From contig CAVVUN010000015.1 in NCBI GenBank assembly GCA_963751455.1, forward strand, positions 672,001 to 736,000: a stretch of DNA of 64,000 nucleotides, read 5' to 3'. The position numbers were made by a program, and so were the translations under genes. This document shows, piece after piece, positions 36,021-62,190 of this stretch (its first letter is position 1; each line of letters begins with the position of its first letter). The notes under the pieces were generated by a model. It saw nothing but the letters and a program-made list of their open reading frames with translations. It was not told the origin of the DNA and did no database searches. The stretch comes from Nitrospirota bacterium (GTDB taxonomy: Bacteria; Nitrospirota; UBA9217).

Positions 36021-36098
36021 GTCCCCATCGTCTAGCCCGGCCCAGGACACCGCCCTTTCACGGCGATAACGGGGGTTCGAATCCCCCTGGGGACGCCA
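36021..36098 (+). tRNA. tRNA-Glu (TTC), integration target
   Basis: Anticodon loop CTTTCAC, GGTTCGAATCC T-arm, CCA end. Confidence 0.95.
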
Positions 36099-37428
36099 AT
36101 TTACTTCTGTAACCCACGGATTTCTTAATCAGATTTTCCGTGGGTTTTCTTGTTTCTGGCCTGTTGTGAATGTCTTGTGAATGAATTTCTGTAACACTCC
36201 CGCCGTGCATCTTCCGCAGCATCTCTACTGATCGCTGAACATACTTTTTCGACATCCCTGACGTGCTCTGACCGGCCATCATTTCCATGTCCTTCTCACT
36301 GTGCCCGTTGAGTGCGTACTGCGTCATCGTCGTGTGTTTGGTTGCATTGTACACGTTGACATAAGGAACGCCGGCGCGTTTGCAGGCACGCTTCCAGATG
36401 TCATTCACAACCCAGTTGGAATACCGGGTGCCGAGTTCGTTCGGGAAAGCGATCTCTCGACCAAAGCGGCCTTGGAGAATTGAGGTATCAAAGCGAGGAT
36501 GAAGCGGAATCACGTATTCCTTTCGGTTCTTTCTCGTTTTCAGACTTCGATCAAAATCCAGACTATTCTCAATCCAGACGGTCATTGCCTTCAAATCGAA
36601 GTGCCGCACATCCAGGGCGCAGGCCTCGGACGGCCGCACAGGATGCTTAATGAGAAAGTCGATAATCGCATGATGAACCGGGTTCGTGATAGAAGCGAAC
36701 GCCTTGTCCCGGTCCTCGATCGGCATGACGCGAACCAGCTTCTCGCTGAGTACAATCGGGTCGAAGATCGGAACGATGAAATCACGCTTCATTTTGTGGA
36801 GCCAGTTACAGAAGCCGCGGAGCTGATCCATCACGTTCTTGACCGCCTTATCTGAAAGCGGCTGATCTTTATGGCCTCCGAATGGGATCCGGTATACCTC
36901 AACGAGGTGCTTCTGGAAGCGGGCGATGTCCATTGTCTCGATCTCGAGCATGTTCCGTTCGCTGAAGAATGGGATGAAATGATCCTCGCAATACTGCTCG
37001 ATCTTTCGAATATAGGAGAGCGCCCGTTTCGGTTTCCTCGAGCGAATGTCGCTCAGCCAGGTGATTTTATCAGGCCCGGGATCTGCCGTTTGAAAAAGGA
37101 ACTTCCCTTTGTATTCGTCCAGCTCAGAAGCAAGGTATTTTCTGATATCGAACCGCCGATGCTCAGTCTTGCACACGTCAAGATCGGTTCGGATACTCTC
37201 AATGACTCCATAGGCGAGACTATAACTCGAGAACATATGCCCGGTCTTGTAATACCGGCTGATCACGTAGGGCTTGTGGGTGACTTTATCGTAAAAGAAG
37301 ATGTAGACCTTATCGGGTTTTGTTTGGCAGGTAGGACATATTAAAGCAGGTGCTTTTCCGACAAAGAGCTCCTTGAACTTTCCGGCGCAGACAGGACACA
37401 CTTCGCGGGTACGGACTTGTCCGCTCAT
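36058..37428 (-). CDS. Tyrosine integrase with N-terminal CxxC/CxxC zinc ribbon; reads through attL into the tRNA
   Basis: VRPSEACAL (Arg I), K, YNATKH, MAGQS, KKY; GGAGG RBS before ATG 37428. Confidence 0.88.
   Translation of the reverse strand: MSGQVRTREVCPVCAGKFKELFVGKAPALICPTCQTKPDKVYIFFYDKVTHKPYVISRYYKTGHMFSSYSLAYGVIESIRTDLDVCKTEHRRFDIRKYLASELDEYKGKFLFQTADPGPDKITWLSDIRSRKPKRALSYIRKIEQYCEDHFIPFFSERNMLEIETMDIARFQKHLVEVYRIPFGGHKDQPLSDKAVKNVMDQLRGFCNWLHKMKRDFIVPIFDPIVLSEKLVRVMPIEDRDKAFASITNPVHHAIIDFLIKHPVRPSEACALDVRHFDLKAMTVWIENSLDFDRSLKTRKNRKEYVIPLHPRFDTSILQGRFGREIAFPNELGTRYSNWVVNDIWKRACKRAGVPYVNVYNATKHTTMTQYALNGHSEKDMEMMAGQSTSGMSKKYVQRSVEMLRKMHGGSVTEIHSQDIHNRPETRKPTENLIKKSVGYRSKLASPGGFEPPLSP
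36164..36185 (+). repeat. Arm-type integrase-binding repeat (left)
   Basis: TTGTGAATGTCTTGTGAATGAA; copy with one mismatch at 56075-56096. Confidence 0.75.
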
Positions 37429-37666
37429 GTTATGGCCCCCCTCCTCAGTCTTCTGGTGGGGGTGATTGTAGGCTATGTCCACGCCTAAAGTCAAGCTGCC
37501 GTCCTCGATTGTCCTCAACCGCACTGGATTTGGAATCCAGCGGGGGATTTTAGAAATCGCAAATTCAAAGAGTTACGACCCTTATGCCACCTGTATGCTC
37601 GCGACCTTTTTACTGAAACCCGCTGGCCATTCGCCGTAATTACCGTCCATCTTTCAATATTGAGTT

Positions 37667-39223
37667 CTAGACGGTTCTATCCGACCCTATCACCTGTGAA
37701 GTTGCACCCAGCTGTATGAGCGCCTGGTTTGCATTGAGTGCTCCGGCGATCGCGGTAGCCCAGATGTTACCGCCGGCCTTCGCAGTATCAGCTCTGATCT
37801 CCATTGACGCGATAAGCGCCCTCACCGCCAATTGGGCCTGCTGCGCAAGTATCTGCGTCTGGAACTCAGCTGCCCCTTTCGTAAGTCCTGCGACGGCCAC
37901 CCCGACATCCGCACGCGCCTTCTGCAGTCCGACCTCTGCCGAGTACGCCCCGACCTTGGCCCCGAACGCAGAACCTTTCGCGGCTATCACCGAGGCAAGC
38001 CCTTCGGCCTTGGCTTTGAGCGCCTGCATATACGAGTCGAATTGCTTTAAGATAGCCATGTTCTTCTCTGCCGTGGCCTTGAGTTTTTCAACCTGCATCA
38101 TGGCGTCCGTTTTAGCGTATTCAAGGCTGAGTCCGTAATCGGTCTTTTCCTTGTCAAGCTTGGCCGTAAACGCCTTTAAAAGCATCTCGTTCTTGGAAAT
38201 CTGATGCCCTAAAAGGGCAAGCTGCACATCAGCAGCCTTTATGAGCGCCGATACCCGTGCAGCATACTTGGATATCCATGCGTTATAGAAGCCGAGAGAA
38301 AATTCGAAGACCGACCGCATGGCCGTCAGCGCCCGATTCTTCACCTGGTCGTAATGCTGGACCTCGACAGCCAGGACCTGAAGCATGCTCGACGTGGTGA
38401 ACTGCTGGTTCTGCAGGCTCATCTTTGCCTGGTCTTCGGCTACCGACCGGGACTCGTCCATTTTCTTATACCCATACTCGGTTTCGAATGCAGTGACTGT
38501 CTGTTTAAGAGTGCCCTGCGGCAGATCCCACCCAAAACGCGCATGATCATCGGCCATCTTCACGACCGTACGCTGCCGGATAAGTTCGTCACGCTCGGAC
38601 ATCCGATCCCATATCTGTCGCTCAACCGTGGGGTTGATACCCGTTACGCCGGCGGCCATGTCCGCAGTAAGCTTCGCATAGAGTGCGGTTGCGCTTATTG
38701 ACGAAAGGCTCTCGTTCTCTGCCTGGTATAGGCTGTCCTTATACGAGGTGATCGCGTCCTGGATAACGGTCATATCGTCCGACATCTTGATATCATTAAG
38801 GCTATCGGGATCAAAAAGGTCATCCGGGTTCGGTAAATCGATTTCTTTAAAATCCTTCAGGTCTTCCGTTGTCGGCGGCGCGTCGACTGTCTTGATATTA
38901 AGTGAGTCGTACGGATCCAGCGTGCCAGAAGGAGTTGGCGGCGTAGCACCGTTAAAGTCAATAGCTCCGATCTGCGACTCCTGCTGTGCGGTGTCAAGAT
39001 TGGCCCGGACAGTAATCGTCGTTCTGGGGTCGCTGATCAGCGTCTCCGGACTCGGCGGCGTCCATTGAAGCGCCGGAATCTCTACATTCGGCAGGAATAA
39101 TGAGGTTGATATCTGCTGCAGGGCTGACAGAAACTGCGCTGCGTTATCTACGTTTTCCGTTACATTCTGGTTGAGCGTTGCAAGCCGCTCGCTAACCGCC
39201 GCATTGACTTCTTCAACTGACAT
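37667..39223 (-). CDS. ~520-aa Ala-rich coiled-coil protein, possibly virion-associated
   Basis: Long helical ORF with GGAGG RBS, downstream of the terS-like gene; function is inferred only. Confidence 0.55.
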   Translation of the reverse strand: MSVEEVNAAVSERLATLNQNVTENVDNAAQFLSALQQISTSLFLPNVEIPALQWTPPSPETLISDPRTTITVRANLDTAQQESQIGAIDFNGATPPTPSGTLDPYDSLNIKTVDAPPTTEDLKDFKEIDLPNPDDLFDPDSLNDIKMSDDMTVIQDAITSYKDSLYQAENESLSSISATALYAKLTADMAAGVTGINPTVERQIWDRMSERDELIRQRTVVKMADDHARFGWDLPQGTLKQTVTAFETEYGYKKMDESRSVAEDQAKMSLQNQQFTTSSMLQVLAVEVQHYDQVKNRALTAMRSVFEFSLGFYNAWISKYAARVSALIKAADVQLALLGHQISKNEMLLKAFTAKLDKEKTDYGLSLEYAKTDAMMQVEKLKATAEKNMAILKQFDSYMQALKAKAEGLASVIAAKGSAFGAKVGAYSAEVGLQKARADVGVAVAGLTKGAAEFQTQILAQQAQLAVRALIASMEIRADTAKAGGNIWATAIAGALNANQALIQLGATSQVIGSDRTV

Positions 39224-39629
39224 ATACACCTCCATTTAATGTTGCGTTTTGTTAACATCTTCAGCCTTACTCAACGGGTCCGACGCGCTGCCAGGCAACC
39301 CGCTACTGCCCATGTCATCTAGGCAATAAATCTGAGATTTTCACATGAACTATATTTAGCTGCGACCTTAACAAACCTTAACAACCTCACTGCTTCAAGA
39401 GTCGGAACGTTAGCTTTTGTTAACAGGCCATTGGTTTCCGACCATTTCAGACAAAGGCGACTTGATCCCTGGTTGCGAGCCGTACACGATTCCACATCTT
39501 CTCGATAAAAATATCGGTAAATATCGGTTTCAAAGCTCACTAAGTCGAGAATCTTTCACGTTAATTTCGTGGCAACGAGTTTTAAACAATGCGGCCAGTG
39601 ACTCTCCAAAGTGTCGGTTTTTCTCCGGG

Positions 39630-39899
39630 TCAGTCCTCGTTTCCCACCTTGTCCGACTTCCCGATGAAAGCAAGCTCTTCGTCGGTCACATGCATTCCTT
39701 TTCGGAGATAACCTTCGATCAACGCTCTCCGTACCCGCGGTCTGTTCCGGACCAGGCATTGCTTGCTGCGCGCAGTTGATCTCTTGTAGCCGGCATCCAG
39801 CATAGCGCCCGTATAACACTCGCCGTCGAGAAGGGCCTGCACGAGCTTCCGCTCTTTTTCGGAGAGGGTCTCAATTGTCTTGGGTTTGTCATTGACCAT
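39630..39899 (-). CDS. Terminase small subunit-like HTH protein
   Basis: LSEKERKLV..LL.G...T.AM.DAGY...TA resembles the TerS N-terminal LTxKQ..F...AA..AGYS..TA pattern; GAGG RBS. Confidence 0.55.
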   Translation of the reverse strand: MVNDKPKTIETLSEKERKLVQALLDGECYTGAMLDAGYKRSTARSKQCLVRNRPRVRRALIEGYLRKGMHVTDEELAFIGKSDKVGNED

Positions 39900-40359: not shown

Positions 40360-40944
40360 TTATTGAAGTGCCTGTACCGCTTCTGGAAAGGTTGCCCCGT
40401 ATAATTTCCGGTAAACGTCGATCGTGTCCGCTGTCTTGCCGCAAGAGAAGCAGTAGGCGAAATTATTCTTGATGAACATGCTCGGCCTGTGGTCTTCATG
40501 AAAGAGGCAGAGAGCCATTCCGCGGCGCGCATCAATGAAATTATCTATCGGGTATGCTTTCGCTCGCTCGATCATGTCAGGCGTGACGGTGTCTTGTTTC
40601 GGTTTCTGTCCGAATGCTTCGAGCCCCTTTTCGAGCAGATAATCACGCTCTCGCTTTAATTTATCCTTGTTCTTCATCAGTCTGGCTACGCGGTCCGCTA
40701 TCATGTGGCCGCTCATCAAATTTGTTTTGTGCTTCTCATAGCTTATCGATGCATCGAGCAGATGGTCTTGAATTTCTGCGATCTGTTCCATTAGAGCGAA
40801 AATCCGCAACCATTCCCCCTCGCGGGCCATCTCGTTTTTATGTTCGTGAATCCGCGCGCGGACTCTCGGCATATCTACAGCGTTTCTCCACTTTGTGAGC
40901 GCTGCATCACTTATCACCATTTCCTGATATTCGAGGTCGGTCAT
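40360..40944 (-). CDS. CHC2 zinc-finger protein (primase Zn-binding domain, no TOPRIM)
   Basis: CLFHEDHRPSM...YCFSCG...DTID......TF.EAV..L. Confidence 0.85.
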   Translation of the reverse strand: MTDLEYQEMVISDAALTKWRNAVDMPRVRARIHEHKNEMAREGEWLRIFALMEQIAEIQDHLLDASISYEKHKTNLMSGHMIADRVARLMKNKDKLKRERDYLLEKGLEAFGQKPKQDTVTPDMIERAKAYPIDNFIDARRGMALCLFHEDHRPSMFIKNNFAYCFSCGKTADTIDVYRKLYGATFPEAVQALQ

Positions 40945-40966
40945 GGGCGCCCCTGCTTCCTGGCCT

Positions 40967-41812
40967 TCAGCTTTTCATGGTGCATCTGTCTGTATTCCGG
41001 CTCAATTGTTCTTTCCCTGAGATCCTGAGATAAGGTCCTATCTTCGTGACGTTCACCTTCTTGTTCTTCGCTCCTGTAGCTCGGCACTTCGCAACCTTCA
41101 GAACTGCGTTGTCTCCGCCATCAAGCCGCCATATAAAAACAACCGTGTCCGCTTCCTTGCCGATCATGCCCGAATCCCGGAGACTCCTGATCGTCGGTTC
41201 CTCTGCCGCTTCGCTTCTATTCGTGTGAACGATCAAGACAATGATCAGATTTTCGTTTATCGCCAACAATTTGAGCTTCCGGCATATCCGGCCCAGATCG
41301 TTCGACAGGTTCCCGGTTTCTACCTGGTCGGACAAATAGTGGAGGTGGTCTATAAAAACGGCGTGAATCGTTTTATATTTCAGCTTTGCCTCCCTGATTC
41401 GTTCGCCGATCCAAGTCAACGTGCTCATCTCAAGTTCTGCCGGTAACATAAAATACGGTACTGCCTCGCCGAATTTTGCTAGAAATTCATCCGGCCTTTC
41501 TTCATAACTAAACCACAGGCATCCTGCGTCCTGTTCTGAAAAATTATTTGTCAGTGTACGAGCTAAAAGTGTTTTCCCTTCTCCCTCATCCCCGCTCAGG
41601 ATTACGAGCTGCCCGCCGCGGCAATCCCGGATATGATCGTCAAGGCCCGGGATCTTGGTTCTGAGGACTATTGTCGGTTCGAACTTCTTTTCAGCGTGGA
41701 GCTGATCAACCTTATCCCAGGAGGTAATCACCCGACCGGGTCCGCAATAGCTCTTGAGTTCCGCGTCTGCCTTTCGGCGTTCGTTGTCTTTGATGATCTC
41801 TTCAGGGTTCAT
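40967..41812 (-). CDS. DnaB-like SF4 helicase (C-terminal ATPase domain only)
   Basis: GDEGEGKT, FSYE, FIDHLH, LKLLA, LRDSGMIGKEADTV, KVAKCR. Confidence 0.88.
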   Translation of the reverse strand: MNPEEIIKDNERRKADAELKSYCGPGRVITSWDKVDQLHAEKKFEPTIVLRTKIPGLDDHIRDCRGGQLVILSGDEGEGKTLLARTLTNNFSEQDAGCLWFSYEERPDEFLAKFGEAVPYFMLPAELEMSTLTWIGERIREAKLKYKTIHAVFIDHLHYLSDQVETGNLSNDLGRICRKLKLLAINENLIIVLIVHTNRSEAAEEPTIRSLRDSGMIGKEADTVVFIWRLDGGDNAVLKVAKCRATGAKNKKVNVTKIGPYLRISGKEQLSRNTDRCTMKS

Positions 41813-42987
41813 GCGTATTGCCTCTTGTATCCGGGAACCATGCTGCTCTGTGATTCCTGCCTTTCAGGATTCACATGCTCCTTGTAAATATGAATCTTAT
41901 TCTTCCCGGTACCGCTTACGATAAACCGCACAGCGTCCTTAATTCCGAACCGCGGCTTTGTCGCTGCAAAATTACGAGCCGCCAAAATAGCGTTATCCTG
42001 TTCCTCGATATTTAGGCCGTTGAAAGCCGCTGCTGCTTCCTGCTTAGAACCCTTACGCCCGTCTTCTCTCGCTGGGTACGCCGTCCAGAATAATAGAAAC
42101 TTGTCGCTGTATTGCGGGTCTCCCTGTTCTGTCGGCTTTTTTGGTGTTCGTGTCTTCTGGCGCCTTTGGCGTTCGGGCCCCGTGACCTGGTGAGTTCGGC
42201 CGGCTTTCGTGGGATTCGCGTCTGTCTCTGATCCGGACAAAATAAGACTCTGTGCGTGCGCAGGAGCTAAATTTACAGGCTCTGTTCCATCAAGACGTAA
42301 AGAGATATCAGGTTTGCCCTTTGATTCGGTCTTTTCACGATCGATATCAGGCAGCGTTGAACCGTCTTCCGGTGAAACGCATTCTTTTGTTTGTTGTATA
42401 AGTGTATATTGTGGTCCCGGTTTTCCGTTACTGCTGTCCGGTTTTCCGTTACTACCTACAGCTGAGTAACGCTTTTCCGTTACAGTAACGGTTTTCCGTG
42501 ACTTCCCCTTTTGGGAGATGTTTTTCCACTTCGTATAGTCTTTTTGAAAGCCTACTTTTGCTCCTGATCGTGTCAGGATATTTCTCTCGCAGAGATCCTT
42601 GAAGGCCTCATATACCCGCTGCTTTTTAAGGCCGGTTTTTTCAATAAACTGCTCGTATGCAATCCAATCAAGCTTCTTGTCCCATCCATAAGTTTTCCGG
42701 AAAACGACCATCAGTATTCGCCAGCCATGGCCACTGATTTTCACCCTGGCAAGAGCTTCAAGGATCTCATCGGCGATCTTCGTATAGCCGTTCTGAAGTT
42801 GAGGGCTTGCACCCATCCTCATTTCCGATTCTGGTGCCCCTGCTTTGATTGCCAGCCGTGAAGAATCTATCTCTGGCAGCGGTGGTAGAAGGGCGCCGAT
42901 CTCCGACACTGCCCGTCCTTCTTTCATGGCACTAAGCGCCCAGTGCGGGAGGTGGAATCTATCATGATGTTCATCTCTGGCCAGCAT
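41809..42987 (-). CDS. Lambda O-like phage replication initiator
   Basis: NGYTKIA.EILEAL....S....RI...V.RKTYGW.KK.DWI...QF...TG; C-terminal FW..YP...K..A motif; GGAGGTG RBS. Confidence 0.85.
   Translation of the reverse strand: MLARDEHHDRFHLPHWALSAMKEGRAVSEIGALLPPLPEIDSSRLAIKAGAPESEMRMGASPQLQNGYTKIADEILEALARVKISGHGWRILMVVFRKTYGWDKKLDWIAYEQFIEKTGLKKQRVYEAFKDLCERNILTRSGAKVGFQKDYTKWKNISQKGKSRKTVTVTEKRYSAVGSNGKPDSSNGKPGPQYTLIQQTKECVSPEDGSTLPDIDREKTESKGKPDISLRLDGTEPVNLAPAHAQSLILSGSETDANPTKAGRTHQVTGPERQRRQKTRTPKKPTEQGDPQYSDKFLLFWTAYPAREDGRKGSKQEAAAAFNGLNIEEQDNAILAARNFAATKPRFGIKDAVRFIVSGTGKNKIHIYKEHVNPERQESQSSMVPGYKRQYA
42417..42502. repeat. Iteron array, probable replication origin within the O-like gene
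   Basis: Four TTTTCCGT(T/G)AC units, the first two exact CCGGTTTTCCGTTACT 21 bp apart, next to an AT-rich tract at 42381-42410. Confidence 0.8.
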
Positions 42988-42994
42988 ATCAAGC

Positions 42995-43234
42995 TCACCT
43001 CCTCGCAGCATACATCTTCGCACGCAAGACCTTATAGGCTGCGATAAAATCTTGGATCGGCACGCTTTCGTTCCCGTTGTATTTAGCGATGATAGCATTA
43101 ACTTCGTCAGAGGAGGCGTGAACGAAAACTGACAGATCCCGGTCAACTTCGAGGTTAGGCGCTTTTCGGGTGATTGCGAAGATCGCGGAGGACAGAAAGA
43201 TATCTCTTGTCTTGAACTGTTGGCTGGTAGGCAT
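42995..43234 (-). CDS. DUF5659-like small phage protein
   Basis: F.TRDIFLSSA...F...Y.....V....F...YK.LR pattern; AAGGAG RBS; first gene of the replication operon. Confidence 0.55.
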   Translation of the reverse strand: MPTSQQFKTRDIFLSSAIFAITRKAPNLEVDRDLSVFVHASSDEVNAIIAKYNGNESVPIQDFIAAYKVLRAKMYAARR

Positions 43235-46580: not shown

Positions 46581-49500
46581 TCATTCCCCTAAGTCTGGCA
46601 AAAAGAAAGTGCGTTCCGATTCTGAGTATTCCCCATACTCCTTCTCGCGGTCCCAAATGCGCAGCCGTATAAAGAAGGCGAGCTTGCGCCCTAACCGTTC
46701 CATTGCGTCGGTGAGCAGCTCCTGATCGATCATGGTCGCCGTGCCGCAGCGCGTCGAACCTCCCTTCGGGTACAGCGGAGTCCAATTGTCGTTCCATATC
46801 CGAGTTCTCGAGGCAATCTTCCCGTCGGATGCGATACAGTCGATACTCTCCCGTGTACATCGGATTTCGGTTTTGGGAACCGTATAAGAGGCGGGAACCT
46901 TCAGCCCTATGGACAAATAGTCGCTTTGCCATGTACCAAACGGTATTGGTATAAGGGAATTGCAGACAGCAACCTCGTCACCCGTTTTACCTCCAGAGCT
47001 TGCTTCCTCGATCGTGATCTCTTCTGGCGGCCCCTTGAGTTCGAAAGTGTCATTAACAAACAGTAATAAATTTTTTTCGTAGAGGTAGGCACTATCAGGT
47101 AGTTCATAATCAGGCGTTATGAGGTGGGCACTGAGGGTAAGGTCGGCATACTTCTGCACCAATGACGTTACTGGCGTATGGAGCGACACGAGCATCATGC
47201 CTTCAGCGCGTGCTGTCTGCACGAGCTCGCGGACGATAGGCGAGAAATTAGCGCCGGGAGCGCAGAATCTTTCAGGGAAGTCCGAGAGCCACACCGGCCT
47301 TGCGACAGGTTCGACATCGAAGAGACCTGCAATCCCGTGAACGATGTCGACGCAAGAGCCTTCCGCGATCCTCTGGGGCATACGCAACTCGCTCACGGCA
47401 TAAGCCAGAGTCCGCAGATAAGCGGAGCGATAGACCTCGCTCATACGCTGCCAGTACTGGCCAATGATTCCCGCACGTGCGTCTGATACGTTGTCGAAAT
47501 AATACGGGTAGCGCGTGTAGTGCGTGCCCAGCTTGTCTCGTAAGGTTTTCCACTCATAGGCCCAGTGCTGGAGAAAGGGGTAGCCGCTCAAGAGTTCCAG
47601 CTTTGTCAGATTGTTCATGAGGATCGGTGGAACATGCGCGGTCTTGTGCTCCTCGAAGTAGCTATCGCTCTCGAAGTCGGCCGGAGCCCGTCCCGAGTGA
47701 GCCTGGCGCCATCCGCCGATGCCGTGCCCCTGTCCATAGGTCCGCTCCAGAATGATGTCGGCGAGAATCGAAGGGCAATGGAGGCGCGATGCGAGCACCG
47801 TGCGCAAGGGTCTACCGTCTGGCGATGTCAGGAAGACGATCGTGAGGATCTGACAGACTTCAGACTCGGTATTACACTGATCGAGATAGTCCAAAAGCGC
47901 GTCCTCCGTTGAGGACCGCGTCCCCGGATCATTGAGAAGGTTGCGGATTTCCTTGGCCGTTCTCCAGCGCGACATTGGCACTGGCCATTTCAGCCGCTCG
48001 AAAAGGAAGGAAAGCGCGAGAGGGGCCGAGGTTGCTAGGAACCATGGTGTCGCCGGGATCGGCTGCTCTCGAACCTCCTCAACCAACGTGTCAACGAAGG
48101 CAGCCGTGATCTTGTCGGCAAGTTCCACCTGCCCGACGAGCATCAGGAAGCGCACCAAGTATTTGTAACCAATGACGAAACTGTAGCGTCGGCGTCGGTA
48201 ATAAGGAAGGGGCACCGACGTGTCCTTGATGTATTGGAGCCAGCGATCCGGATAGTGCTTTGCAGCGAGCCTAATTCGCGTCATTATTTGAGCATCTGAT
48301 TCATAGTAGCTCCAGCCATGGCGATGAATGTGAGCTTTGACGAGCCATGGGTATGCAGCGTCCTTACCTTCGACAGCGAGGCTCACGAGGAAAGCTTCGT
48401 CTAGGACTTCCTCAGCGCTGTAGGTTGTTTCGCTCGTGTCGAAATAGGAGAGGATCGATTGCAGAGCTTTTGATGTTTTGCCCTGGCTCTTCCAGTGATG
48501 GAGCCACTTCGCCATGAATTCCCTGCGGCTCCTGTAATGAAGGGGCACCGCTGCTTTAGCGACGGCGGCGAAATCCTCATAGCTGAATGATGTGGGATCG
48601 ACCTTAGCAGCCTCTTTCTCCTGCTCGGAAAGCTCTTCTTCCTTAGTCTCTTTGATTTCGAGGCCAACTTTGGGCGGTCGGCCTAGAAAGACATTCTGAT
48701 TTTCTAGAAGCTCTTGGGCGGGCTGTTCATTGACCGCTCGGCCCTCGAGAACCCCTAGAGTTCGCTCGTCTAGGAATGTGCGGGCCAGTGCAGCACCTTG
48801 CGGAGATTTGAGATCCATAATCTTCGCGCATTCGTTCAGACACTCGTCGGCATAGGAATATTCGTCCGCCGAAAGGTGATGTCTATAGATGGATGGCAAG
48901 TGGTCGGGTGCAACCTTCGCCACGACTTCGATAAGTTCAGAACGCACGTGATTCGTATCGTCGCCGTCTGTGAATTCCGTGATCATCTCGATAATCGGGA
49001 CGAGCGTTTCGACGTGTGTCCGCGCGACAGCCGGTTTCCTCGCGCTCAACTCGACAACGGCATCGAGCACGTCCATCGCGTGGAGGTCTTTATGCGAGCC
49101 ATATCCGACAAGGCATTCGGCAGCGTGTGCGAGAAACTCGGCCTGTCTTCCATCCTCGTAGAGAAGCGCCATGTTTGCGAGTTCCGTCCAGCGCCCTGAA
49201 CGCTCGCTGAAATCCGTCACCTTCCCTGACAGCGCTTTCGCCTCGTCACCAAGAAGCACCGCCACACCATCTTTATCGAGGAGAGGAATCCTGTTTCCCA
49301 CATTACGTGTCGCCCAGATCGTGTCAGACCAATGGTCGGATTGGCGCGCTATGCTCAGCTCCGAGACAGGCACCCTAGTATTGCTGGGATCGGAAAGTCC
49401 AAGGAAATGAAGATCGACACCGATACGCCGGAGAGCCTCGCTGAAGGCTCGATATTGTGCGGCTTCTTTTTCGGGAGATGGACCCCAATGGACAGGTTCC

Positions 49501-52412
49501 AGATCAGCAGTAGCCGCATACACGGCTGAGAAGGTTGGAACAAGGCGGCCTGCTGCAATGTCCCGTGCAATCTCTTGGAGTTTTGCCGTTCCCTGCGGTA
49601 GCCATCCCAGATCGGCGCTGCCGAGACCCGGATGGATCATTGAATAATCGCCGCCCTTCGCACAAAACCCGATGTACAGAGCGGTCCAAAACACGTCGTA
49701 AAAGAAGGATATGACGTCCGGGTTCTCTCCGAGTGAATAGTGCTCCCGGATGAGGTTGTTGGGCACCGGAGGGATATACACATCTATCTTTGCGTCGCGA
49801 TCGCGCCAGAGGAAGAAGCATGCGGCAAAGGCCGAGAGGGACTCGTTACCGAGAGGAACGAGTTCTCTGACATCCACGCCTTTGAAACTGCCCGCCCGTA
49901 TGAGCGCGTCGTGGATTAACCGCCGCTGATCGTTCCACTTGGCGCCGCCTAGCGTTTTGCGGATAAGCTGAAGCCCCTCGATGTTTTGCGCATCACCAAG
50001 CAGACGGATGAACCTCGAGACATGGGGCTCTGGCTTCTTGAAGCCGCGCGCATAGTTTAGCGTGCGCCGCACTGTCTCCTTATCCATCAGCGCACTAACC
50101 GAGAGGAGGTGATCCGAAAGCTCCGTGAATTCCCGCTCGGGACGGTGCCGCAGCACGATCCATGCATTGACGCGGCGGGCCAGTTCATTGAGGCATGCTG
50201 GCAAGATCTGAAGTGACATTTCTTTTGGCCCGAGTCGGGCGAGTTGTGTTACTTCGCTGTCGGTCAAATTGTGGATGTCGTCTAGAAGATTCAGCGTCTG
50301 CTGACGGTTGTCGGAAACCGCAAGCGCAGTCGCTCGGTAAGCGGCAAAATCACTCGATTGAAACTCGCGGGCGTTTGAAACGCGGGTCTTCAGACTGCGA
50401 AGAAATACTGTTCGCGACAAGTCTGCGTCTTTGAAGGTCTTCTCTTCAGCGACGGCGAGTATATTTTCAATCTGCTGATCGGGCCAGCCCTTCGCGAAGG
50501 ATTCGACGACCCAATCCCGCGTTGCGCCTACGAACAAATCTTCGAAATGGCCTGCTTGCGCCCCTGCAAGCCATAGCCAGCCCCATCGCCAGTATTCAGG
50601 CGCATCATTCGCGAGCCAGTTGATGATCTTGGGCAGGAGTGCTTGATAACTTTCCGCATGGTCATCCCGCTCCCGTACCCATGCGAAGATGCTCGAGTGG
50701 AAAGGGACCATGCCGACATTGCGTGGCTCCAACAGGTGGTCGATCTGGCTGAAGTCCCCTAGCACCTGCCTTATGCCGAGGCTTGGCCAGAAGAAGTCCG
50801 ATCCCGCGAGCATGTGGAGAGCGTTCTTGGCATCCGCGCTGAGGTGAACCCAGAGCCCCCGATAGTAGGTACGGATATCGCCATCCGGACACGGCGGGAG
50901 CAATTGAATTTCCTCCGCAGACGTTGGGCGGCCTGCGCGGATAACACCCTCGTATGCGTAAATCAAATGCAGCGGGTGGCCCTGGCTGATATTAAAAAAC
51001 GCTGTCGCGATCTCGTCGATCATTTCAGAACGCCGCTCGGGAGGCGGATCAAACCGGAAGATGAGTGGACGCGCCTTGAACTGCTGCACCACCCAGCGGT
51101 GGACCGCGACCTCGTCCATACGCGGAATCTCGCTCCAGTCATCGTCATTCGCGATCGTCAGCAGCTTGCCGGGCAGCTGCTCGTCACTGACGCGCTGCGT
51201 TCCGACGATAAGATTGACATTTGGCGGTAGCGGGAGCAGTTCGTTGAAGAGGTGATTGAGTTGGTCGACGCGCTGCGTGTCGCGCCAAACGTGATCGAGT
51301 CCATCGACGATGATATAAAGCCGCTGACCTTTGCCGGCGAGGTTGGTTGCAGCAATCCCGATGGCGGCCCGCAACTCGCTAGGATCACCCTTGACGCCGG
51401 CCATGGCTTCAGGATGGCGCACATAGAGCTGATCCATTAGCGAGGTCGAAATTTCGATAAAAGAGCTGCGGTTGGAACTCGAGTCCTCCGCTGACAAAAA
51501 GTAGTGGTGTCGCGTTATGGCCGCGCCTTCCTTTTGAAGCTCCTGGGTCAGATAGCTGAGGTAGGTGCTCTTCCCGCGCCCTGGCGTTCCCCAAAGGATT
51601 GTGATCGGATTGTCGTCCCTCGCGATGCGTGCACGAAAGGTCTTGTGGAAGGCCTCGCTCGGCGGGCTGTAGCCGTCGAGGACGATAAAATCCTGTCGGA
51701 TAGGTTGCGGGCGGCGCTTCGTAATGAGCTGTACAAGATGCTCCCGCAGAATATGTCCATCGGGTTCAGGCTGGTTTTTGCGGGTCGCCCAACGACGTAC
51801 GCTCTCGCGGAAAAGAAGCCAACCCGCCGAATCAGTGTCTGTAGGTACGAGCTGATCGCGAAGATAGTCTTCGTATCTGTCGAGGTCCGGCATACCTCCT
51901 AAGAAATCGAACGTACTGAAGAATGTTTTAGCCTCGGCGGCGCCTCCGCATGCGCTCTCAACTGACTCGCGAAATTCCTTTGGTAGGAGGTCAAGGTCGA
52001 CCCGCATGCCTTTCAGGCACTTTGCGAACTCCCCAGACGGTATGCGGTTTGTTTTAAGACCAGCACTGTGGATTGGACCCATCGCTGCCACACGGGCAAG
52101 GGACTTCGCCCACTTTTCGAGCATCGCCGTCCCTTTTTCAGTTTTGGCGAGAAGCCAGTCCCAATCCAGCTCGTAGCGGCCGGGGTCGACCGTGAACTTG
52201 ACCTGTACGAGCTCGTAGGAACCATCTTTACGTGCAGCCACAACGTCGTCGAGCGCTCGGTAAGCCGTGTCGTCGGCCTCGAGCAGCACCCACGCGTAGA
52301 GCTCAGGGTCTCGGTACTGGCGAATAAGCACCTCGATACCGACGAGGTCTTGGTACTCGAAAGCTGCTCTTGTTATCGCGGCGGGCTTTATCCGGGATTT
52401 TGCCATTGTCAT
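46581..52412 (-). CDS. PD-(D/E)xK nuclease - STAND/NACHT NTPase - helical sensor protein (Avs-like anti-phage candidate)
   Basis: N-terminal FEYQD...LDDVV...VQVK; Walker A GTPGRGKST; Walker B YIIVDGLD; GHPL; long helical C-terminal region; intact 1943 aa. Confidence 0.8.
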   Translation of the reverse strand: MTMAKSRIKPAAITRAAFEYQDLVGIEVLIRQYRDPELYAWVLLEADDTAYRALDDVVAARKDGSYELVQVKFTVDPGRYELDWDWLLAKTEKGTAMLEKWAKSLARVAAMGPIHSAGLKTNRIPSGEFAKCLKGMRVDLDLLPKEFRESVESACGGAAEAKTFFSTFDFLGGMPDLDRYEDYLRDQLVPTDTDSAGWLLFRESVRRWATRKNQPEPDGHILREHLVQLITKRRPQPIRQDFIVLDGYSPPSEAFHKTFRARIARDDNPITILWGTPGRGKSTYLSYLTQELQKEGAAITRHHYFLSAEDSSSNRSSFIEISTSLMDQLYVRHPEAMAGVKGDPSELRAAIGIAATNLAGKGQRLYIIVDGLDHVWRDTQRVDQLNHLFNELLPLPPNVNLIVGTQRVSDEQLPGKLLTIANDDDWSEIPRMDEVAVHRWVVQQFKARPLIFRFDPPPERRSEMIDEIATAFFNISQGHPLHLIYAYEGVIRAGRPTSAEEIQLLPPCPDGDIRTYYRGLWVHLSADAKNALHMLAGSDFFWPSLGIRQVLGDFSQIDHLLEPRNVGMVPFHSSIFAWVRERDDHAESYQALLPKIINWLANDAPEYWRWGWLWLAGAQAGHFEDLFVGATRDWVVESFAKGWPDQQIENILAVAEEKTFKDADLSRTVFLRSLKTRVSNAREFQSSDFAAYRATALAVSDNRQQTLNLLDDIHNLTDSEVTQLARLGPKEMSLQILPACLNELARRVNAWIVLRHRPEREFTELSDHLLSVSALMDKETVRRTLNYARGFKKPEPHVSRFIRLLGDAQNIEGLQLIRKTLGGAKWNDQRRLIHDALIRAGSFKGVDVRELVPLGNESLSAFAACFFLWRDRDAKIDVYIPPVPNNLIREHYSLGENPDVISFFYDVFWTALYIGFCAKGGDYSMIHPGLGSADLGWLPQGTAKLQEIARDIAAGRLVPTFSAVYAATADLEPVHWGPSPEKEAAQYRAFSEALRRIGVDLHFLGLSDPSNTRVPVSELSIARQSDHWSDTIWATRNVGNRIPLLDKDGVAVLLGDEAKALSGKVTDFSERSGRWTELANMALLYEDGRQAEFLAHAAECLVGYGSHKDLHAMDVLDAVVELSARKPAVARTHVETLVPIIEMITEFTDGDDTNHVRSELIEVVAKVAPDHLPSIYRHHLSADEYSYADECLNECAKIMDLKSPQGAALARTFLDERTLGVLEGRAVNEQPAQELLENQNVFLGRPPKVGLEIKETKEEELSEQEKEAAKVDPTSFSYEDFAAVAKAAVPLHYRSRREFMAKWLHHWKSQGKTSKALQSILSYFDTSETTYSAEEVLDEAFLVSLAVEGKDAAYPWLVKAHIHRHGWSYYESDAQIMTRIRLAAKHYPDRWLQYIKDTSVPLPYYRRRRYSFVIGYKYLVRFLMLVGQVELADKITAAFVDTLVEEVREQPIPATPWFLATSAPLALSFLFERLKWPVPMSRWRTAKEIRNLLNDPGTRSSTEDALLDYLDQCNTESEVCQILTIVFLTSPDGRPLRTVLASRLHCPSILADIILERTYGQGHGIGGWRQAHSGRAPADFESDSYFEEHKTAHVPPILMNNLTKLELLSGYPFLQHWAYEWKTLRDKLGTHYTRYPYYFDNVSDARAGIIGQYWQRMSEVYRSAYLRTLAYAVSELRMPQRIAEGSCVDIVHGIAGLFDVEPVARPVWLSDFPERFCAPGANFSPIVRELVQTARAEGMMLVSLHTPVTSLVQKYADLTLSAHLITPDYELPDSAYLYEKNLLLFVNDTFELKGPPEEITIEEASSGGKTGDEVAVCNSLIPIPFGTWQSDYLSIGLKVPASYTVPKTEIRCTRESIDCIASDGKIASRTRIWNDNWTPLYPKGGSTRCGTATMIDQELLTDAMERLGRKLAFFIRLRIWDREKEYGEYSESERTFFLPDLGE

Positions 52413-52562: not shown

Positions 52563-53198
52563 CTATAACCCAAATTGCAGCCGTGAAACTGCATCGATCT
52601 TCTTTTCATCGGATGTGTGGAGATACTTTTCGGTCGTCCGAATGTGACTGTGGCCTAAAAGTTCTTGAACTGTTCGCAGGTCAACGCCCTTGTCCAAAAG
52701 GGATGTAGCAAAGGTATGTCTCGTCGTGTGCGGCGTGATCCGCTTCGTGATGAGCGCCGCCTTCTTTACCCTCTTCATAAGGCAGTCAACGGCCTTGTGC
52801 GTGAGGGGCACCGGTTCGCAGTTGCCGCGCTCACCCAGGGTGAAGAAGAGCGGCCGGGCCGTGGCCGGTGCGCCGGCTCTGTCCTCGAAAAGATGAGGCA
52901 TACTGCTCTTGAGGGCCTTCTGATAATCGAGGACCGCCTCCACAACGTCGTTGGTGAGAGCAACGCGCCGTTGCTTCTTTCCCTTGCCGATCACGTCTAC
53001 AACCGTCTGATTCCGATATGTGGTCAGGTTCTCGATACTCAGGCTGCATACCTCGGCCTTTCTGAGGCCCGAGGAAAGCATAAGGAGTAGCAGGGCATAA
53101 TCACGCTTGCCCTTGAGGGTCCGCCGATCCGGGACCCGGAGGAGGGCTTTGACTTCATCCGCAGTCAAAAAATCCGATGGTCTCTTTATCTTTTCCAT
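52563..53198 (-). CDS. Minimal tyrosine recombinase (catalytic domain only, resolvase-like)
   Basis: RD.ALL.L...GLRKAE, GKGKK.R, HTTRHTFAT, LLGHSHIRTT.KY. Confidence 0.9.
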   Translation of the reverse strand: MEKIKRPSDFLTADEVKALLRVPDRRTLKGKRDYALLLLMLSSGLRKAEVCSLSIENLTTYRNQTVVDVIGKGKKQRRVALTNDVVEAVLDYQKALKSSMPHLFEDRAGAPATARPLFFTLGERGNCEPVPLTHKAVDCLMKRVKKAALITKRITPHTTRHTFATSLLDKGVDLRTVQELLGHSHIRTTEKYLHTSDEKKIDAVSRLQFGL

Positions 53199-55923: not shown

Positions 55924-56202
55924 ATTTCCCTCCTGAATTTGATGTTCACATTGAATCGTGATTGCCATGCATTCTAGCAGAGAGAAGCAAACTGTTCGGG
56001 CCAGACGAAAGCGAATCCAGCAGGGATTGCGGTTGGGGAGCTTCGGGCGATGAGGCGGCTCTGATCGAGTCATCTTGTGAACGTCTTGTGAATGAAAAAA
56101 AGGTCTATCCGTATGTTCTTTTTGCTCTTAACTGCTGGAAATATTGACTTTTTCTATTCTTCCTCAGGGGGTTCGAATCCCCCTGGGGACGCCAATCAAT
56201 TC

Positions 56203-56238
56203 AGGAGTTACCGGTTTCCGGTAGCTCCTTTTCTTTTT
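56203..56238 (+). terminator. Terminator after attR
   Basis: aggagttaccgg-ttt-ccggtagctcct followed by a T-tract. Confidence 0.7.
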
Positions 56239-57114
56239 ACTGTGCTGAATTTGTGCTAATTCCCCCGGACTCTTCCCCAAATGTGTTACGTTCAACTCTT
56301 GCCCGTCTGGTCCTTCCTAAAATCGAAATTTTTTTAACTTAGCTTTCCTCGCGTGACTCCCATGAGAGATGAACTGCTGGGGTCCGCTTGTTAATGCAGC
56401 GAGACGCCCGAAGCGAAGGAGGCGGGCTTCCGGGTTACGATCTGTCTTACTGTGGGGGTGCATGCGCTCGTGCAGGTGCCGGAGGCGCTCACAGGCTGGC
56501 AGGATTACAGCGGACGGCTATCCCGCGACTGGACATCTTCGGCTCCCTGCCGGGGTTAGAAAGTGCTTACTCGCGCCTGGCGCTTACGACGAGCGTAGGC
56601 GCGAGCAGCAGTCCCGCCCTACACTCGCGCGGTCGCACTCGTAAACGCGGGGTGCAGGCGCGAGGTCGCGTTATTTAGTCCCGACAAGTCGAGACGGTGA
56701 TCGAGGCTCCTCTGGGATACGTTCTTCTGGTGCAACTGCTTTCAAGCTGGCAGGGGAGAAGCATCTCGTTCCGGAGGAGCAACCTCTAACTTCCTCATTT
56801 TCTAAAGAGGACTACAAATGCGACCTCCCAGCGGTTCACGACGCACTACGACGGCCGGGGCCGGGGTAGTGCAAGTCGCGGGATTCGAAGTGATTTACGA
56901 GACCGACCCGCGCAGACCCGCTCCGCCATGTCATCCTCTGACTCTGCTTCTCGGAATATGAGGGGTTTCACGATCCTGCTGCCGGAAGAATATTAGTCGC
57001 GTTCACTTCCCCGGATTCGGCCGGGGGGACCTCTCCAAAGGGCTTCCATTTCCCTTTGATTTTATGTTATTATCATACAAAGTATAGAAGATGAAGGCTA
57101 GTCAAGAGGTGCAT

Positions 57115-57435
57115 ATGCTGCCGGTGGAAAAAACAATTCTCGATAGATTCAAAGCCCTTCTTGCCGCACGTGTAAACGTGTATAAGCTGATTCTATTCGG
57201 TTCTCGTGCCCGAGGCGATGCGGAATTTTCCTCAGATATGGACGTCCTGGTCATTCTGGAGGGTTCGCCTTCCGAGAAGGATTTCGATGTTGTCAGTGAC
57301 TGTGCATGGGAAGCGGGATTCGTACACGGGATCGTAGTCGTACCGGTCGTTTATTCGAGAAACGAATGGGAAAACACTCCTGAGCGCTATTCCCTGCTGG
57401 CCCGTGCCGTAGAAAAGGATGGAGTTCTCGTTTGA
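57115..57435 (+). CDS. Minimal nucleotidyltransferase (MNT) antitoxin-like protein
   Basis: LFGSRARGD...SDMDVLV. Confidence 0.9.
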   Translation: MLPVEKTILDRFKALLAARVNVYKLILFGSRARGDAEFSSDMDVLVILEGSPSEKDFDVVSDCAWEAGFVHGIVVVPVVYSRNEWENTPERYSLLARAVEKDGVLV

Positions 57436-57836
57436 AAGAACAGGAGATCGAAGACCTCGTACGCCATCGAATGGAGCAGGCTGCAACGGCTCTAGCTGAC
57501 GCAGATTTTCTCTTGCAGGGTAATCGCAGTGCGCAAAGCATCGTCAACCGGGCCTATTATGCCATGTTTTATGCCGCGCTCGCTCTTCTTCAAAAAGCAG
57601 GGAAAGTACCCTCGAAGCATGTTGGTGTGATAAGCCTCTTTGATACGGAATTCGTTCTGAAAGGCATGTTGCCGAAAGAGCTCTCAAAGACTTTTCATAA
57701 AGCCTTTGAGCTGCGACAGGTATCAGACTACAAGAGCGTTACTCACGTATCAAATGACAAAGCTGTAGAAACTCTTCAGAATGCAAAACGATTTGCAGAT
57801 GAAGTGCGTGTTTTTCTGGCTAAGCAGTCGTCTTAA
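57432..57836 (+). CDS. HEPN domain protein
   Basis: NRAYYAMFY, SKH.GVISLF..EF, RQVSDY; overlaps the MNT stop. Confidence 0.9.
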   Translation: MKEQEIEDLVRHRMEQAATALADADFLLQGNRSAQSIVNRAYYAMFYAALALLQKAGKVPSKHVGVISLFDTEFVLKGMLPKELSKTFHKAFELRQVSDYKSVTHVSNDKAVETLQNAKRFADEVRVFLAKQSS

Positions 57837-57986
57837 CAAAACTGTTTGGCTTCCCGTTTTTTATGCTTTTACCGTTTGTAAGGTTAACAAGAGACACTTT
57901 GAGCAGATTGACTCTTATTGATACCCGCCATCCTGTACACCTCAACCTCCATTCGCACACCTGCCGTTCAATGATTCGGAGATTCA

Positions 57987-59903
57987 ATGTCTAACAAGAA
58001 AGCTCTTCTCGAGGCGATTGAAAAAGAAGAAGCATTGCTTTCGAATCTGGACAGCGAACGCGAGAAATCTCTTTTTAGACTCAAAGCATTCAAACAACAA
58101 CTTGCCGAACTGGAAGCAACGTGCGCTGAGTCGGTTATATCCTACGCAGCCAAGACTCCCAAGGAAAAAGTATCGTTATTCCGTTCTCTGTTTCACGGGA
58201 GGGAGGATATCTTTCCGAGACTTTGGACCAGCCGCGCCGGCAAGAAAGGTTATTCTCCGGCCTGTTCGGATGATTGGATCTCCGGCACATGCGGGAAGAC
58301 GCACAAACCGCCTGTAAAGTGCAGCGAATGCACGAATCGAAACTTCCTTCCTGTAACCGATCAAGTCATTATGAATCATCTCCAAGGGCGTCATGTAGTC
58401 GGTGTTTACCCAATGTTGCCTGACGATACTTGCTGGTTCCTTGCCGCTGATTTCGATAAAGAATCATGGAGGGACGATGTCAGTGCATTCCGGGAAACCT
58501 GCAAGATCATGAATATCCCGGTGGCAATAGAACGATCACGCTCAGGAAATGGAGCCCATGCGTGGTTCTTCTTTGCCGAGCCCATCCCAGCGGCGACGGC
58601 GCGAACAATGGGATGCTACCTGATCACGGAAACCATGAGCCGGAGACATCAACTCAGCATGGAATCCTATGACCGGCTGTTCCCCAGCCAGGATACTTTG
58701 ACCAAAGGCGGCTTCGGGAACCTGATCGCGCTGCCGTTTCAGCATGAGCCACGCCAAGAAGGCAATACCGTATTCCTGGATGATAAGTTAAGTCCCTATG
58801 AAAATCAATGAGCGTATCTTGCATCAATAGGACGAATGTCACCGGAAGAAATTCAGCGAATTGCAAACGAGGCGATACGACTTGATAGTGTGATCGGTGT
58901 TCCGCGAGATGCCGGTCAAGATGAAGGCGATCATATTCCATGGACACGGTCGCCGTCCAGAAAAGCAGGGAAAAAGAAAGTCACCGGAACGTTTCCATCA
59001 GAAACACATGTTGTTTTTGCGCAACGTCTTTTTATCGAGAAAAAGACGTTGCCCTCGCCTTTCATAACCCGTATCAAGCGGCGGGCGGCGTTTCAGAATC
59101 CGATGTTTTATGAAAAGCAGAGTTTGCGCTTATCCACGGCAAGAATACCCCGTGTGATCTCCTGCTACGAAGAGCATCCTGAACACATCGCTGTCCCGAG
59201 AGGTTGTCTCGACAGCCTTCGCGAACTGTTCGTGGAGCATGGCGTAAAGCTCATGCTCGATGACAAACGTGTTGCTCCCGCCGGTCCATCATATGCCTTC
59301 CAGGGAACGTTGAGAGACGCGCAGCTGGAGGCCGTCAATGAAATTTTGAAGCACGATCTCGGCGTCCTCTCCGCACCGCCGGGATTCGGCAAGACGGTTA
59401 TCGGTGCTCATCTTATTGCCAACCGGGGTTGCAGCACACTCGTGCTTGTCCACCGGAAAGAGCTTCTCGATCAGTGGATTGCGCGGCTTTCCCTTTTTCT
59501 CGGCATTGATCCTAAGGAAATCGGAAGGATTGGGGCGGGGAAGAACAAGTCGAACGGAATGTTAGACGTTGCCATGATTCAGAGCCTGGTCCGGAAAGAT
59601 GAAGTCAATGATATTGTCGCCGGCTATGGTCAGGTGATTGTGGATGAGTGCCATCACCTCCCGGCAGTTTCCTTTGAGCGCGTCCTGAACGAGGGCAGAG
59701 CTCGTTATGTTGTGGGCCTGACCGCAACGCCCTACCGGCGCGATGGACACCAGCCGATTATCCATATGCAATGCGGTCCCGTCAGGTATTCGGTTCATCC
59801 GAAAAGCCAGGAAGCGAGAACGCAGTTCAAGCACCAGTTGATTTGTACAGCCACGGTGCTGATGGAAAACTCCGTGATCGCGCCTGAACGCTCAGGGGAT
59901 TAG
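57987..59903 (+). pseudogene. Primase-like plus SF2 (DEAD/DEAH-type) helicase, TOTE-like; nonsense codon and truncation
   Basis: LFRSLF.GRED, FLAADFD, ERSRSGNGAH, GFGNLIALP; TGA 58809 at Q[W]AYL, same frame resumes with APPGFGKT, DECHH, GLTAT; second RecA domain missing. Confidence 0.8.
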
Positions 59904-59960
59904 GGTCGCTTCTTTGCCCTTGACGCGCTGGGTAAATAATAACGCCATTATACTGTGACC

Positions 59961-60374
59961 TCATGTCGCCTCACTCCGCTGCCGCTCGATCTCCCGCAAA
60001 AACTCCCGCACATTTACGACTCTGACGGCGTCTTTCGGAAAGTGCTTCTTGTTCTTCGTTACGATGAAGTCCGCATCCCCGCCTAAGGCAGCGGAGAGGA
60101 ACTTTTCGTCATCGGCATCCGCGCAGAGGCCTTGCGCTGCCGCCGGGCGCACCTTGATCGCCTTAGCAAATACCAGTTCAAGCAGCTCTTCACTTTTGTC
60201 CGGGGGTACGTCGTTATCAAAAAGATGAATTACCCGGAGATACTCGTCGAAGACGTCGTGCGTGACGATCAATTCGAATTCTGCATCCTGAAATGCCCGG
60301 ATGATCTTTGCGGCTCCGCCGTCGGCATTAAGCAGACCGGCCAGAAAGATGTTGGTGTCGATGACGGCCCTCAA
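59961..60374 (-). CDS. PIN-domain toxin
   Basis: AVIDTNIF, C.DADDEKFL.AA, IVT.N.KHF. Confidence 0.88.
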   Translation of the reverse strand: MRAVIDTNIFLAGLLNADGGAAKIIRAFQDAEFELIVTHDVFDEYLRVIHLFDNDVPPDKSEELLELVFAKAIKVRPAAAQGLCADADDEKFLSAALGGDADFIVTKNKKHFPKDAVRVVNVREFLREIERQRSEAT

Positions 60375-60646
60375 TTACGCGGACCCCGTCGTGCGGTCTT
60401 TACGGCCTCATCTATGCTTTTCGCGGTGATGCCCGCCCGCTTCGCTGATTTGCGCACGCTCCCCAAGGCCTCATCGAACTTCCGTGCCCAATCCACGTTC
60501 TTGTCAGAAACACGCTTTGGGGTGATGATGATATGATTGTTGTCGTAGGATACTTCGACGACGTCACCCTGCTCAATATGCGCCTTTTTCCGAATATCGG
60601 CGGGGATCGTGACCTGGGCGAATCGTTTTACCTTCACTAGCGACAT
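60371..60646 (-). CDS. AbrB/MazE family antitoxin
   Basis: QVTIPADIRKK..I..GD.V; 4-nt overlap with the PIN gene. Confidence 0.88.
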   Translation of the reverse strand: MSLVKVKRFAQVTIPADIRKKAHIEQGDVVEVSYDNNHIIITPKRVSDKNVDWARKFDEALGSVRKSAKRAGITAKSIDEAVKTARRGPRN

Positions 60647-60721
60647 TGCAGTTCTCCTCTCTTAATCTCTTAATTTAAAATTTTACACCTATTTATGGCG
60701 TCAGTCAACCTCCTTCTTGCC

Positions 60722-61848: not shown

Positions 61849-61989
61849 TTCGGCCCCCAAAAAGCTTCCATTTGGCATTGATTTTATGCTATTATCACCA
61901 AACGAGCCGCGTAGCGCGAGTTCGCAGTTCCGGGAGGTCGCGTTGTTAGAGGGAGCCTCCGGCTCCTGCCGGAGGGGGCTCCACTGGCG

Positions 61990-62190
61990 GTGCAATGCCT
62001 TGGAGAATTTCTTGTCGAAGATTTCGGTTTTAATGAACTCTCTGTCAAAGAGGGAAATCGCGCCGCTATGTTTTGCGGAGAGCAAGCTGGTAAAGTTCGT
62101 GGTCCCCCTTTTCCATCGCTGCATTGAAGCTCCCGAGAGCGGCACGGAGCTTCCATTCGTAAGGTGAAATAATTGTCGTATTCGCGCGCT
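61990..62190 (-). pseudogene. Fragments of a second MNT-HEPN pair
   Basis: SAKHSGAISLFDREFIK...FSKALH parallels the 57432 protein; IISPYEW...AMEKG resembles an MNT C-terminus. Confidence 0.6.

Follow-up and report, generated by a model that had tools for sequence, protein, structure and literature searches.

Which kind of antiviral receptor is encoded by a large nuclease-STAND gene of a Nitrospirota bacterium, what would trigger it, and how far does the mobile element that carries it explain its role? The gene lies on the minus strand at 46581..52412 of the window analysed here, a 64,000-nt stretch of contig CAVVUN010000015.1 (assembly GCA_963751455.1), and a preliminary description had read its product as an Avs-like anti-phage receptor that it could not assign to a named Avs type. 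We examined this reading using comparisons of sequence, predicted structure and genomic context. The probable answer, in our judgement, is that the receptor is a Cap4-effector member of the Avs1 branch and senses the large terminase of infecting tailed phage. We annotate the gene as encoding a 1943-aa protein in which a Cap4 nuclease, a STAND module and a helical sensor follow one another, and as the fused form of what appears to be a two-gene Avs1-type system.

Receptor gene and domain architecture

The open reading frame is uninterrupted, has an ATG start and encodes 1943 aa, a database copy being given as 1941 aa with its start at Met3. Domain-by-homologue comparisons of the receptor with five related loci yielded dN/dS values of 0.10–0.26 in 23 of 23 cases. 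This indicated that the receptor is a real, conserved gene, and it is under purifying selection. The G+C content of the gene is 56%, against 51% for both the carrier element and the genome, and no paralogue was found in the 5.7-Mb assembly. The product is a conserved and probably functional antiviral STAND protein.

The N-terminal domain (residues 1–234; 51711..52412, minus strand) is a predicted PD-(D/E)xK nuclease in which the motifs DDVVA (55–59, with D55/D56) and QVKF (70–73, with Q70-x-K72) can be read. The nuclease was assigned to the Cap4 type by fold because residues 17–234 of the N-terminal model match Cap4 7yib (VIA-align; Z 16.4, rmsd 3.2 Å, 206 aligned residues); PADLOC gave weak matches of this region to endonuclease effector and LmuA models. 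The STAND NTPase module that follows (residues 240–590; 50643..51695, minus strand) was delimited using Pfam and hhalign to canonical Avs1b. Pfam families NPHP3_N, NACHT and AAA_16 match residues 256–446 above their cut-offs, and the sequence contains a Walker A motif (GTPGRGKST, 275–283), a Walker B region (DGLDH, 370–374) and the further motifs GTQR (404–407) and FHSS (571–574). The Cap4/Mrr-like D...QxK nuclease and intact Walker motifs that had been described from the sequence are indeed present, and D56, Q70, K72, G280, K281, S282, T283, D370 and D373 are invariant in an alignment of 113 sequences.

The region after the NTPase extends over some 1350 aa (591–1943), as against the ~1400 aa originally claimed, and is helical with a beta domain at its end; the nuclease-NTPase-sensor layout proposed for the 1943-aa protein was therefore confirmed as a Cap4-fold nuclease, a STAND NTPase and this long region. 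Its first part is a TPR-like helical sensor (residues 591–1458; 48039..50642, minus strand) that carries a GYGxHKD loop at 1103–1109 and a TDGDxT loop at 1148–1153. The C-terminal part (residues 1459–1943; 46581..48038, minus strand) consists of helical repeats and the C-terminal beta domain, and corresponds to a separate gene of ~485 aa in split relatives.

Two AlphaFold2 models, of residues 1–1100 (mean pLDDT 89.1, pTM 0.76) and 951–1943 (mean pLDDT 94.1, pTM 0.91), together span the receptor. SeAvs3 (8DGC) ranked first in Foldseek searches with both the N-terminal model (E 7.2e-17) and the C-terminal model (E 7.8e-10), and the latter had two matches in all at E<=0.001, both of them chains of 8DGC. 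Residues 1031–1943 of the C-terminal model align with SeAvs3 1077–2085 at Z 11.4, rmsd 6.9 Å, 595 aligned residues and 11% identity, a Z value that helical repeats may attain through common arrangement alone. For this reason we put weight on the collinear, near end-to-end range of the alignment and on the gap to the next PDB entry (Z 7.9). Avs structures were found by fold searches alone, as sequence searches of the PDB with the receptor protein and three profiles returned none. A search of the ESM Atlas with the sensor gave nothing above 0.83, and the C-terminal part retrieved its own unnamed clusters only, one of which is labelled 'multidrug DMT transporter permease'. This label was rejected for the C-terminal part, the model being a soluble-looking helical repeat with a beta domain and the full protein having no transporter match in Pfam.

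A family of split and fused receptors

A single-sequence search detected 350 relatives among 7991 candidates scored, of which the best 120 were examined. A search with a sensor profile detected 797 clusters at E<=0.001, 419 of them also passing E<=1e-30, and the best 150 were examined. At 50% identity the family comprises 797 clusters, some with members from E. coli and Klebsiella, and exists in two forms, an overlapping gene pair encoding 1457 and 485 aa or a single fusion. The preliminary description had viewed the receptor as one gene and so missed that residues 1459–1943 are a separate gene in most relatives. The length distribution has two peaks. Of 267 relatives listed, 204 could be classed, the remaining 63 being fragments or below the coverage filter; 124 of the classed relatives end at the equivalent of residue 1458, three of these 'split' rows being probably truncated and dropped from later trees, and 80 run on for ~480 aa and are fused. 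Use of residues 1459–1943 as a query recovered 130 stand-alone homologues or fragments, most of ~485 aa. The nuclease QxK is kept in 192/199 long relatives, at position 67–71 in most relatives, and the GYGx(R/H)KD and T(D/E)GD(E/D)T loops are present in 144 and 146 of the 204 relatives, respectively.

Genome and viral scans provided 21 loci. Eleven are split, the STAND gene stopping at the junction and the partner ATG overlapping it by 13 nt in 11/11; L001, L009, L010, L011 and L021 are fused, L002, L006 and L008 are cut by contig ends, and L007 and L015 are frameshifted. In three pairs from more distant relatives the overlap is 1, 4 and 10 nt. Distant members (25–30% identity), both fused and split, occur in Klebsiella, Serratia, Pseudomonas, Cupriavidus and E. 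coli. The split partner at L024:8425-9867 and L026:8476-9852 is homologous to the C-terminal part of the receptor and is publicly annotated as 'multidrug DMT transporter permease'. Individual copies have been disrupted, one by an insertion in the C-terminal beta domain (L010:13720-14903) and one by an IS3 element after 732 aa, beside an intact Avs2 (L025:6004-8202). A full-text literature search with six accession numbers found no mention of them, and no experiment on any member of the branch was found in the literature searched.

Relationship to known Avs types

The sole Avs model matched by the receptor in PADLOC and NCBIfam was Avs1b, with weak scores of 35 and 22.9 bits that derive from the NTPase; the NCBIfam score lies far under the 1500-bit cut-off. 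Of 22 distant relatives from the database that were scanned, 20 likewise matched this model weakly. Avs3a gave no match at E<=0.1 (PADLOC) or E<=0.01 (NCBIfam), and there was no PADLOC match of the receptor to Avs2. A full Avs1b was absent from the 401-genome class sample, and the canonical Avs1b used for comparison was one sequence (L036) from a second genome sample. In hhalign comparisons the family profile matched this Avs1b with a probability of 98.1% (residues 241–747 against 200–700), Avs2 with 17.4%, confined to the NTPase, and a single Avs3a with 1.8%; a two-sequence Avs3 profile reached 95.2% over 14–489, a range that includes the shared nuclease, and the family profile scored 6.8 bits on a true Avs3a. 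The STAND NTPase is closest to Avs1b among Avs1–5 and, judged by profile, the receptor is neither Avs2 nor Avs3. Past residue ~750 the sensor had no significant match to the one Avs1b (profile score -1.7 bits, within shuffled controls). The next hhalign match to this same sequence, at 0.5%, is collinear and places the GYGxHKD loop on Avs1b 1068–1132.

A second line of evidence comes from Upx. Evans et al. 2026 (Nat Commun; PMC13601566) report a 'split-TPR variant' of Avs1 that is associated with Upx, and predict Avs1 to be structurally similar to Avs3. Supplementary Data 5 of PMC13601566 lists Upx cluster 92, to which WP_038339646.1 belongs; the mark 'Next to Avs1' stands at the cluster representative and not at WP_038339646.1 itself. 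In an E. coli locus, WP_038339646.1 lies directly upstream of a pair of 1475 and 482 aa (WP_001287788.1 and WP_038339079.1), the members of which match receptor residues 8–1466 (26%, E 2e-132) and 1467–1931 (25%, E 2e-16). This homology to an Upx-adjacent split pair was checked at one locus, and the paper gives its Avs1 gene no accession; we nevertheless consider it very probable that the split-TPR variant of PMC13601566 is the receptor's family. The locus (L030:3209-12868) is an ssrA-linked island of E. coli, in which Upx stands directly upstream of the split pair at a distance of 4 nt, and the Klebsiella split gene matches 11 of 5426 complete E. coli genomes. The preliminary description had not assigned a named Avs type, and a family-level PADLOC or NCBIfam match is indeed lacking, but given these ties with the split-TPR variant of Avs1 the receptor is probably not an unnamed type.

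The canonical Avs1 operon (AVAST type 1) comprises the MBL protein Avs1a, the protease-STAND Avs1b and Avs1c. Membership of the receptor in this operon type was rejected, as its N-terminus is a Cap4-fold nuclease and not a protease, an adjacent MBL gene (avs1a) is missing and the Avs1b score is 22.9 against 1500 bits. The neighbours of the receptor gene are a 211-aa Xer-like tyrosine recombinase directly upstream (52563..53198, minus strand) and a 161-aa ORF that weakly matches a zinc finger.

Sensors can span NTPase clades, as described by Lee et al. 2026 (Nature; PMC13581612; preprint version PMC12803255), who define Avs7–24. The receptor may be an abortive-infection receptor of the Avs type that combines an Avs1-like NTPase with a specificity of its own for a non-terminase phage protein, possibly one of Avs11–24 or another sensor cluster of Lee et al., an alternative that we consider possible but distinctly less likely than an Avs1-type terminase sensor. 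Its sensor is only 11–14% identical to that of SeAvs3, lacks a significant Avs1b match past ~750 and has conserved polar loops of its own (K1108 and D1109, each in 36/37 sequences), and a QxK at 67–71 is compatible with Q71/K73 of CkAvs11 (PMC13581612, source data). This reading is countered by the Upx paper, which comes from the same laboratory and names Avs1 as the neighbour of cluster 92 (PMC13601566), and by the collinear position of the GYGxHKD loop on Avs1b 1068–1132, though at 0.5% probability. EcAvs19 was rejected for two E. coli relatives, which have Q68 and Q69 at the nuclease motif and no C918-x-C920. PDB entries 9N00, 9N01 and 9YIX, considered for Avs7 and Avs11–24, were not among the fold-search matches, a result that does not in itself exclude membership.

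Carrier element and genomic context

The receptor gene is carried by a 20.1-kb element that is integrated at tRNA-Glu and has a perfect 30-nt repeat of the tRNA-Glu 3' end at both sides (attL-like at 36071..36100 and an identical attR-like copy at 56167..56196, both plus strand). The element encodes a tyrosine integrase (36058..37524, minus strand; Pfam and PHROG 1), a small-terminase-like ORF of 89 aa (39630..39899, minus strand; PHROG 641, a weak match at E 7e-6) and a replication module of primase zinc finger, DnaB-like helicase and phage O-like initiator (40360..43098, minus strand). Within the initiator gene there are three 16-nt repeats (42417-42503), which we take to resemble the iterons of a lambdoid origin. 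The sole virion-like gene of the element encodes a 522-aa protein (37667..39235, minus strand; PHROG 10969) that is weakly like a Pseudomonas phage protein (26% over half its length), the latter being termed 'structural protein' in some records; the 522-aa gene was found in none of 40 related genomes. No match to a large terminase, portal or capsid was detected among the 24 ORFs of the element using PHROGs, and three terminase Pfam families had no match in the whole assembly (completeness 100, contamination 5.37). With its att flanks, integrase, replication module, weak small terminase and no large terminase or portal found, the element fits a PICI-like layout. No relatives of the element were found.

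A second island follows attR (56196-62382) and contains a nucleotidyltransferase-HEPN pair, an AEP-TOTE primase, a short SF2 helicase ORF, a MazE-PIN pair and an rve-type transposase. It ends at a degenerate att-like copy (62353-62382), close to an inverted 29-nt piece of tRNA-Glu (62250-62278). A short repeat family at 56515-56680 and 61900-61990 has many copies across the assembly.

Relatives of the receptor occupy different settings. The family had no match in 50,697 phage records and was found elsewhere in 1 IMG/VR locus, 21 plasmid records and 20 chromosomal contigs with differing neighbours, such that relatives are mostly in chromosomal islands and plasmids. Hand-picked neighbours include short Argonaute, Gabija, type I RM, PDC-M01, PDC-S31 and Avs2; 11 of 15 hand-picked proteins had PADLOC matches, one of the 11 being the STAND relative itself, and this biased sample is not an enrichment test. 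Architecture, fold and the defence-island neighbours of relatives all support the original view of an Avs-like anti-phage receptor, and an anti-phage function is, we believe, highly likely. One split pair lies directly downstream of a TIR-APAZ/short Argonaute system, the contig also carrying conjugation-like genes (L005:5019-14043), and another is faced by a second STAND-like protein of 1710 aa with weak Avs4 and PDC-M54A matches (L019:14172-19304).

The preliminary description had suggested that carriage by an element without TerL and portal would avoid self-triggering while policing competing phages. This fits the locus, and the lack of large-terminase and portal matches in the element and of matches to the three terminase Pfam families in the assembly fits the idea of no self-trigger. 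Because relatives are rarely viral and sit mostly in chromosomal islands and plasmids, satellite policing can serve as a local reading only. The stronger form of this idea, in which a PICI-like satellite uses the receptor mainly as a weapon against its helper phages or competing ones and being carried by satellites is a defining trait, seems improbable to us. It would account for a 20.1-kb att-flanked element with an integrase, O-like initiator, DnaB, primase zinc finger and weak small terminase in which no large terminase, portal or capsid was matched, but conflicts with the unrelated contexts of the relatives enumerated above, with the difference in G+C (56% against 51%), which suggests recently acquired cargo, and with the absence of the 522-aa gene from all 40 related genomes; the element may be a decayed prophage.

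Origin of the single chain

The boundary between the sensor and the C-terminal part retains a fusion scar (48035..48045, minus strand) in which the ATG of the former partner gene (48045-48043) and the TAG stop of the former STAND gene (48037-48035) are both now out of frame. The junction differs from the one in split locus L004 by lacking 2 nt and, as the old ATG and stop remain, the direction of change in the receptor's lineage was from split to fused. The single-chain receptor arose when two overlapping genes were joined by the loss of 2 nt. Locus L001 is fused with the same junction as the receptor gene.

A 205-row tree requires 25 changes between the split and fused states, whereas 200 shuffles required 64 on average and never fewer than 54; among the 107 closer rows the number is 11. 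A single fused clade was rejected family-wide (p-AU 3e-67; 39 rows, 19 fused) but not within the close clade (p-AU 0.117; 29 rows, 14 fused), with the rows for both AU tests having been picked after the first tree was seen and many inner branches being weak. Fusion or fission took place repeatedly in the family. It is highly improbable that the two-gene form alone works, with the fusion resulting from a damaging frameshift or from faulty assembly: the junction does look like a 2-nt deletion from the split state, and no raw reads of the genome were found (the best run shares 0.13 of words), but 80 of 204 classed relatives are fused, including L001 with the same junction, the C-terminal part has a dN/dS of 0.24–0.26 in fused-fused comparisons, model confidence stays high through the junction (block pLDDT 94) and SeAvs3 is one chain over the equivalent span.

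Discussion

Characterised Avs proteins provide a model for how the receptor may act. SeAvs3 tetramerises on terminase binding and degrades dsDNA (PMC13601566), and its residues Y1714 and H1770 contact the ATP of the terminase (bioRxiv 10.64898/2026.08.25.746987). By analogy, the large terminase is the trigger that we favour. The receptor would be auto-inhibited at rest. Binding of the large terminase of a phage in the sensor cradle would release it, ATP-dependent tetramerisation through the STAND module would bring the Cap4 domains together, and cutting of DNA would lead to cell death and abortive infection. The fold suggests that, where the two genes are separate, the same cradle is completed in trans by the ~485-aa partner. 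This partner would supply the terminase-ATP surface because the equivalents of Y1714/H1770 are placed past residue 1459, by a rough interpolation of the structural alignment range that does not operate at residue level. The GYGx(R/H)KD and T(D/E)GD(E/D)T loops are candidate contacts on the STAND chain.

Alternatively, with the cradle cut and rejoined many times at one fixed hinge, the two-gene forms may be heterodimeric NLR-like receptors whose trigger is a non-terminase phage protein. We think this combination unlikely; if it were true, the part of the recognition surface provided in trans could be swapped, or regulated on its own.

Belonging to a named class, the receptor adds little by itself. 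Two aspects merit following: that fusion and fission recurred at a single hinge, and the identity of the trigger. Natural fused and split versions at 75–85% identity, together with a readable scar, offer a ready comparison for the assembly of two-chain NLR-like sensors, and this comparison could show which half recognises what. Defence inventories also undercount the branch, because PADLOC 2.0 and NCBIfam 20 miss it and databases mislabel the partner gene.

Several known systems come close to the receptor. SeAvs7, a Cap4-STAND capsid sensor (PMC13581612), has a Cap4 effector and a Walker A position similar to those of the receptor; its sensor (561–1523) is common to Dsr1 (PMC13581612), the PADLOC model of which the receptor did not match. 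SeAvs3 (8DGC) has the same effector fold and domain order and is the best structural match for the models of both halves, the predicted C-terminal beta domain included, but shares 11–14% identity with the receptor, which is ~150 aa shorter and belongs to a family that often consists of two genes. Canonical Avs1 has the closest NTPase, an hhalign match at 98.1% that covers the STAND module and extends ~160 residues into the sensor, and a similar length (1924–1931 profile positions); the receptor differs in having a Cap4 nuclease for the protease, and no MBL or small third gene alongside. The split-TPR variant of Avs1, named as an Upx neighbour only in the passages of PMC13601566 covered here, differs from the receptor in that the latter is one fused chain without an Upx neighbour. 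The E. coli pair beside the cluster-92 Upx has full-length homology to the receptor (25–26%), and shares with it the nuclease motif, GYGx(R/H)KD, SAYLR and the position of the split.
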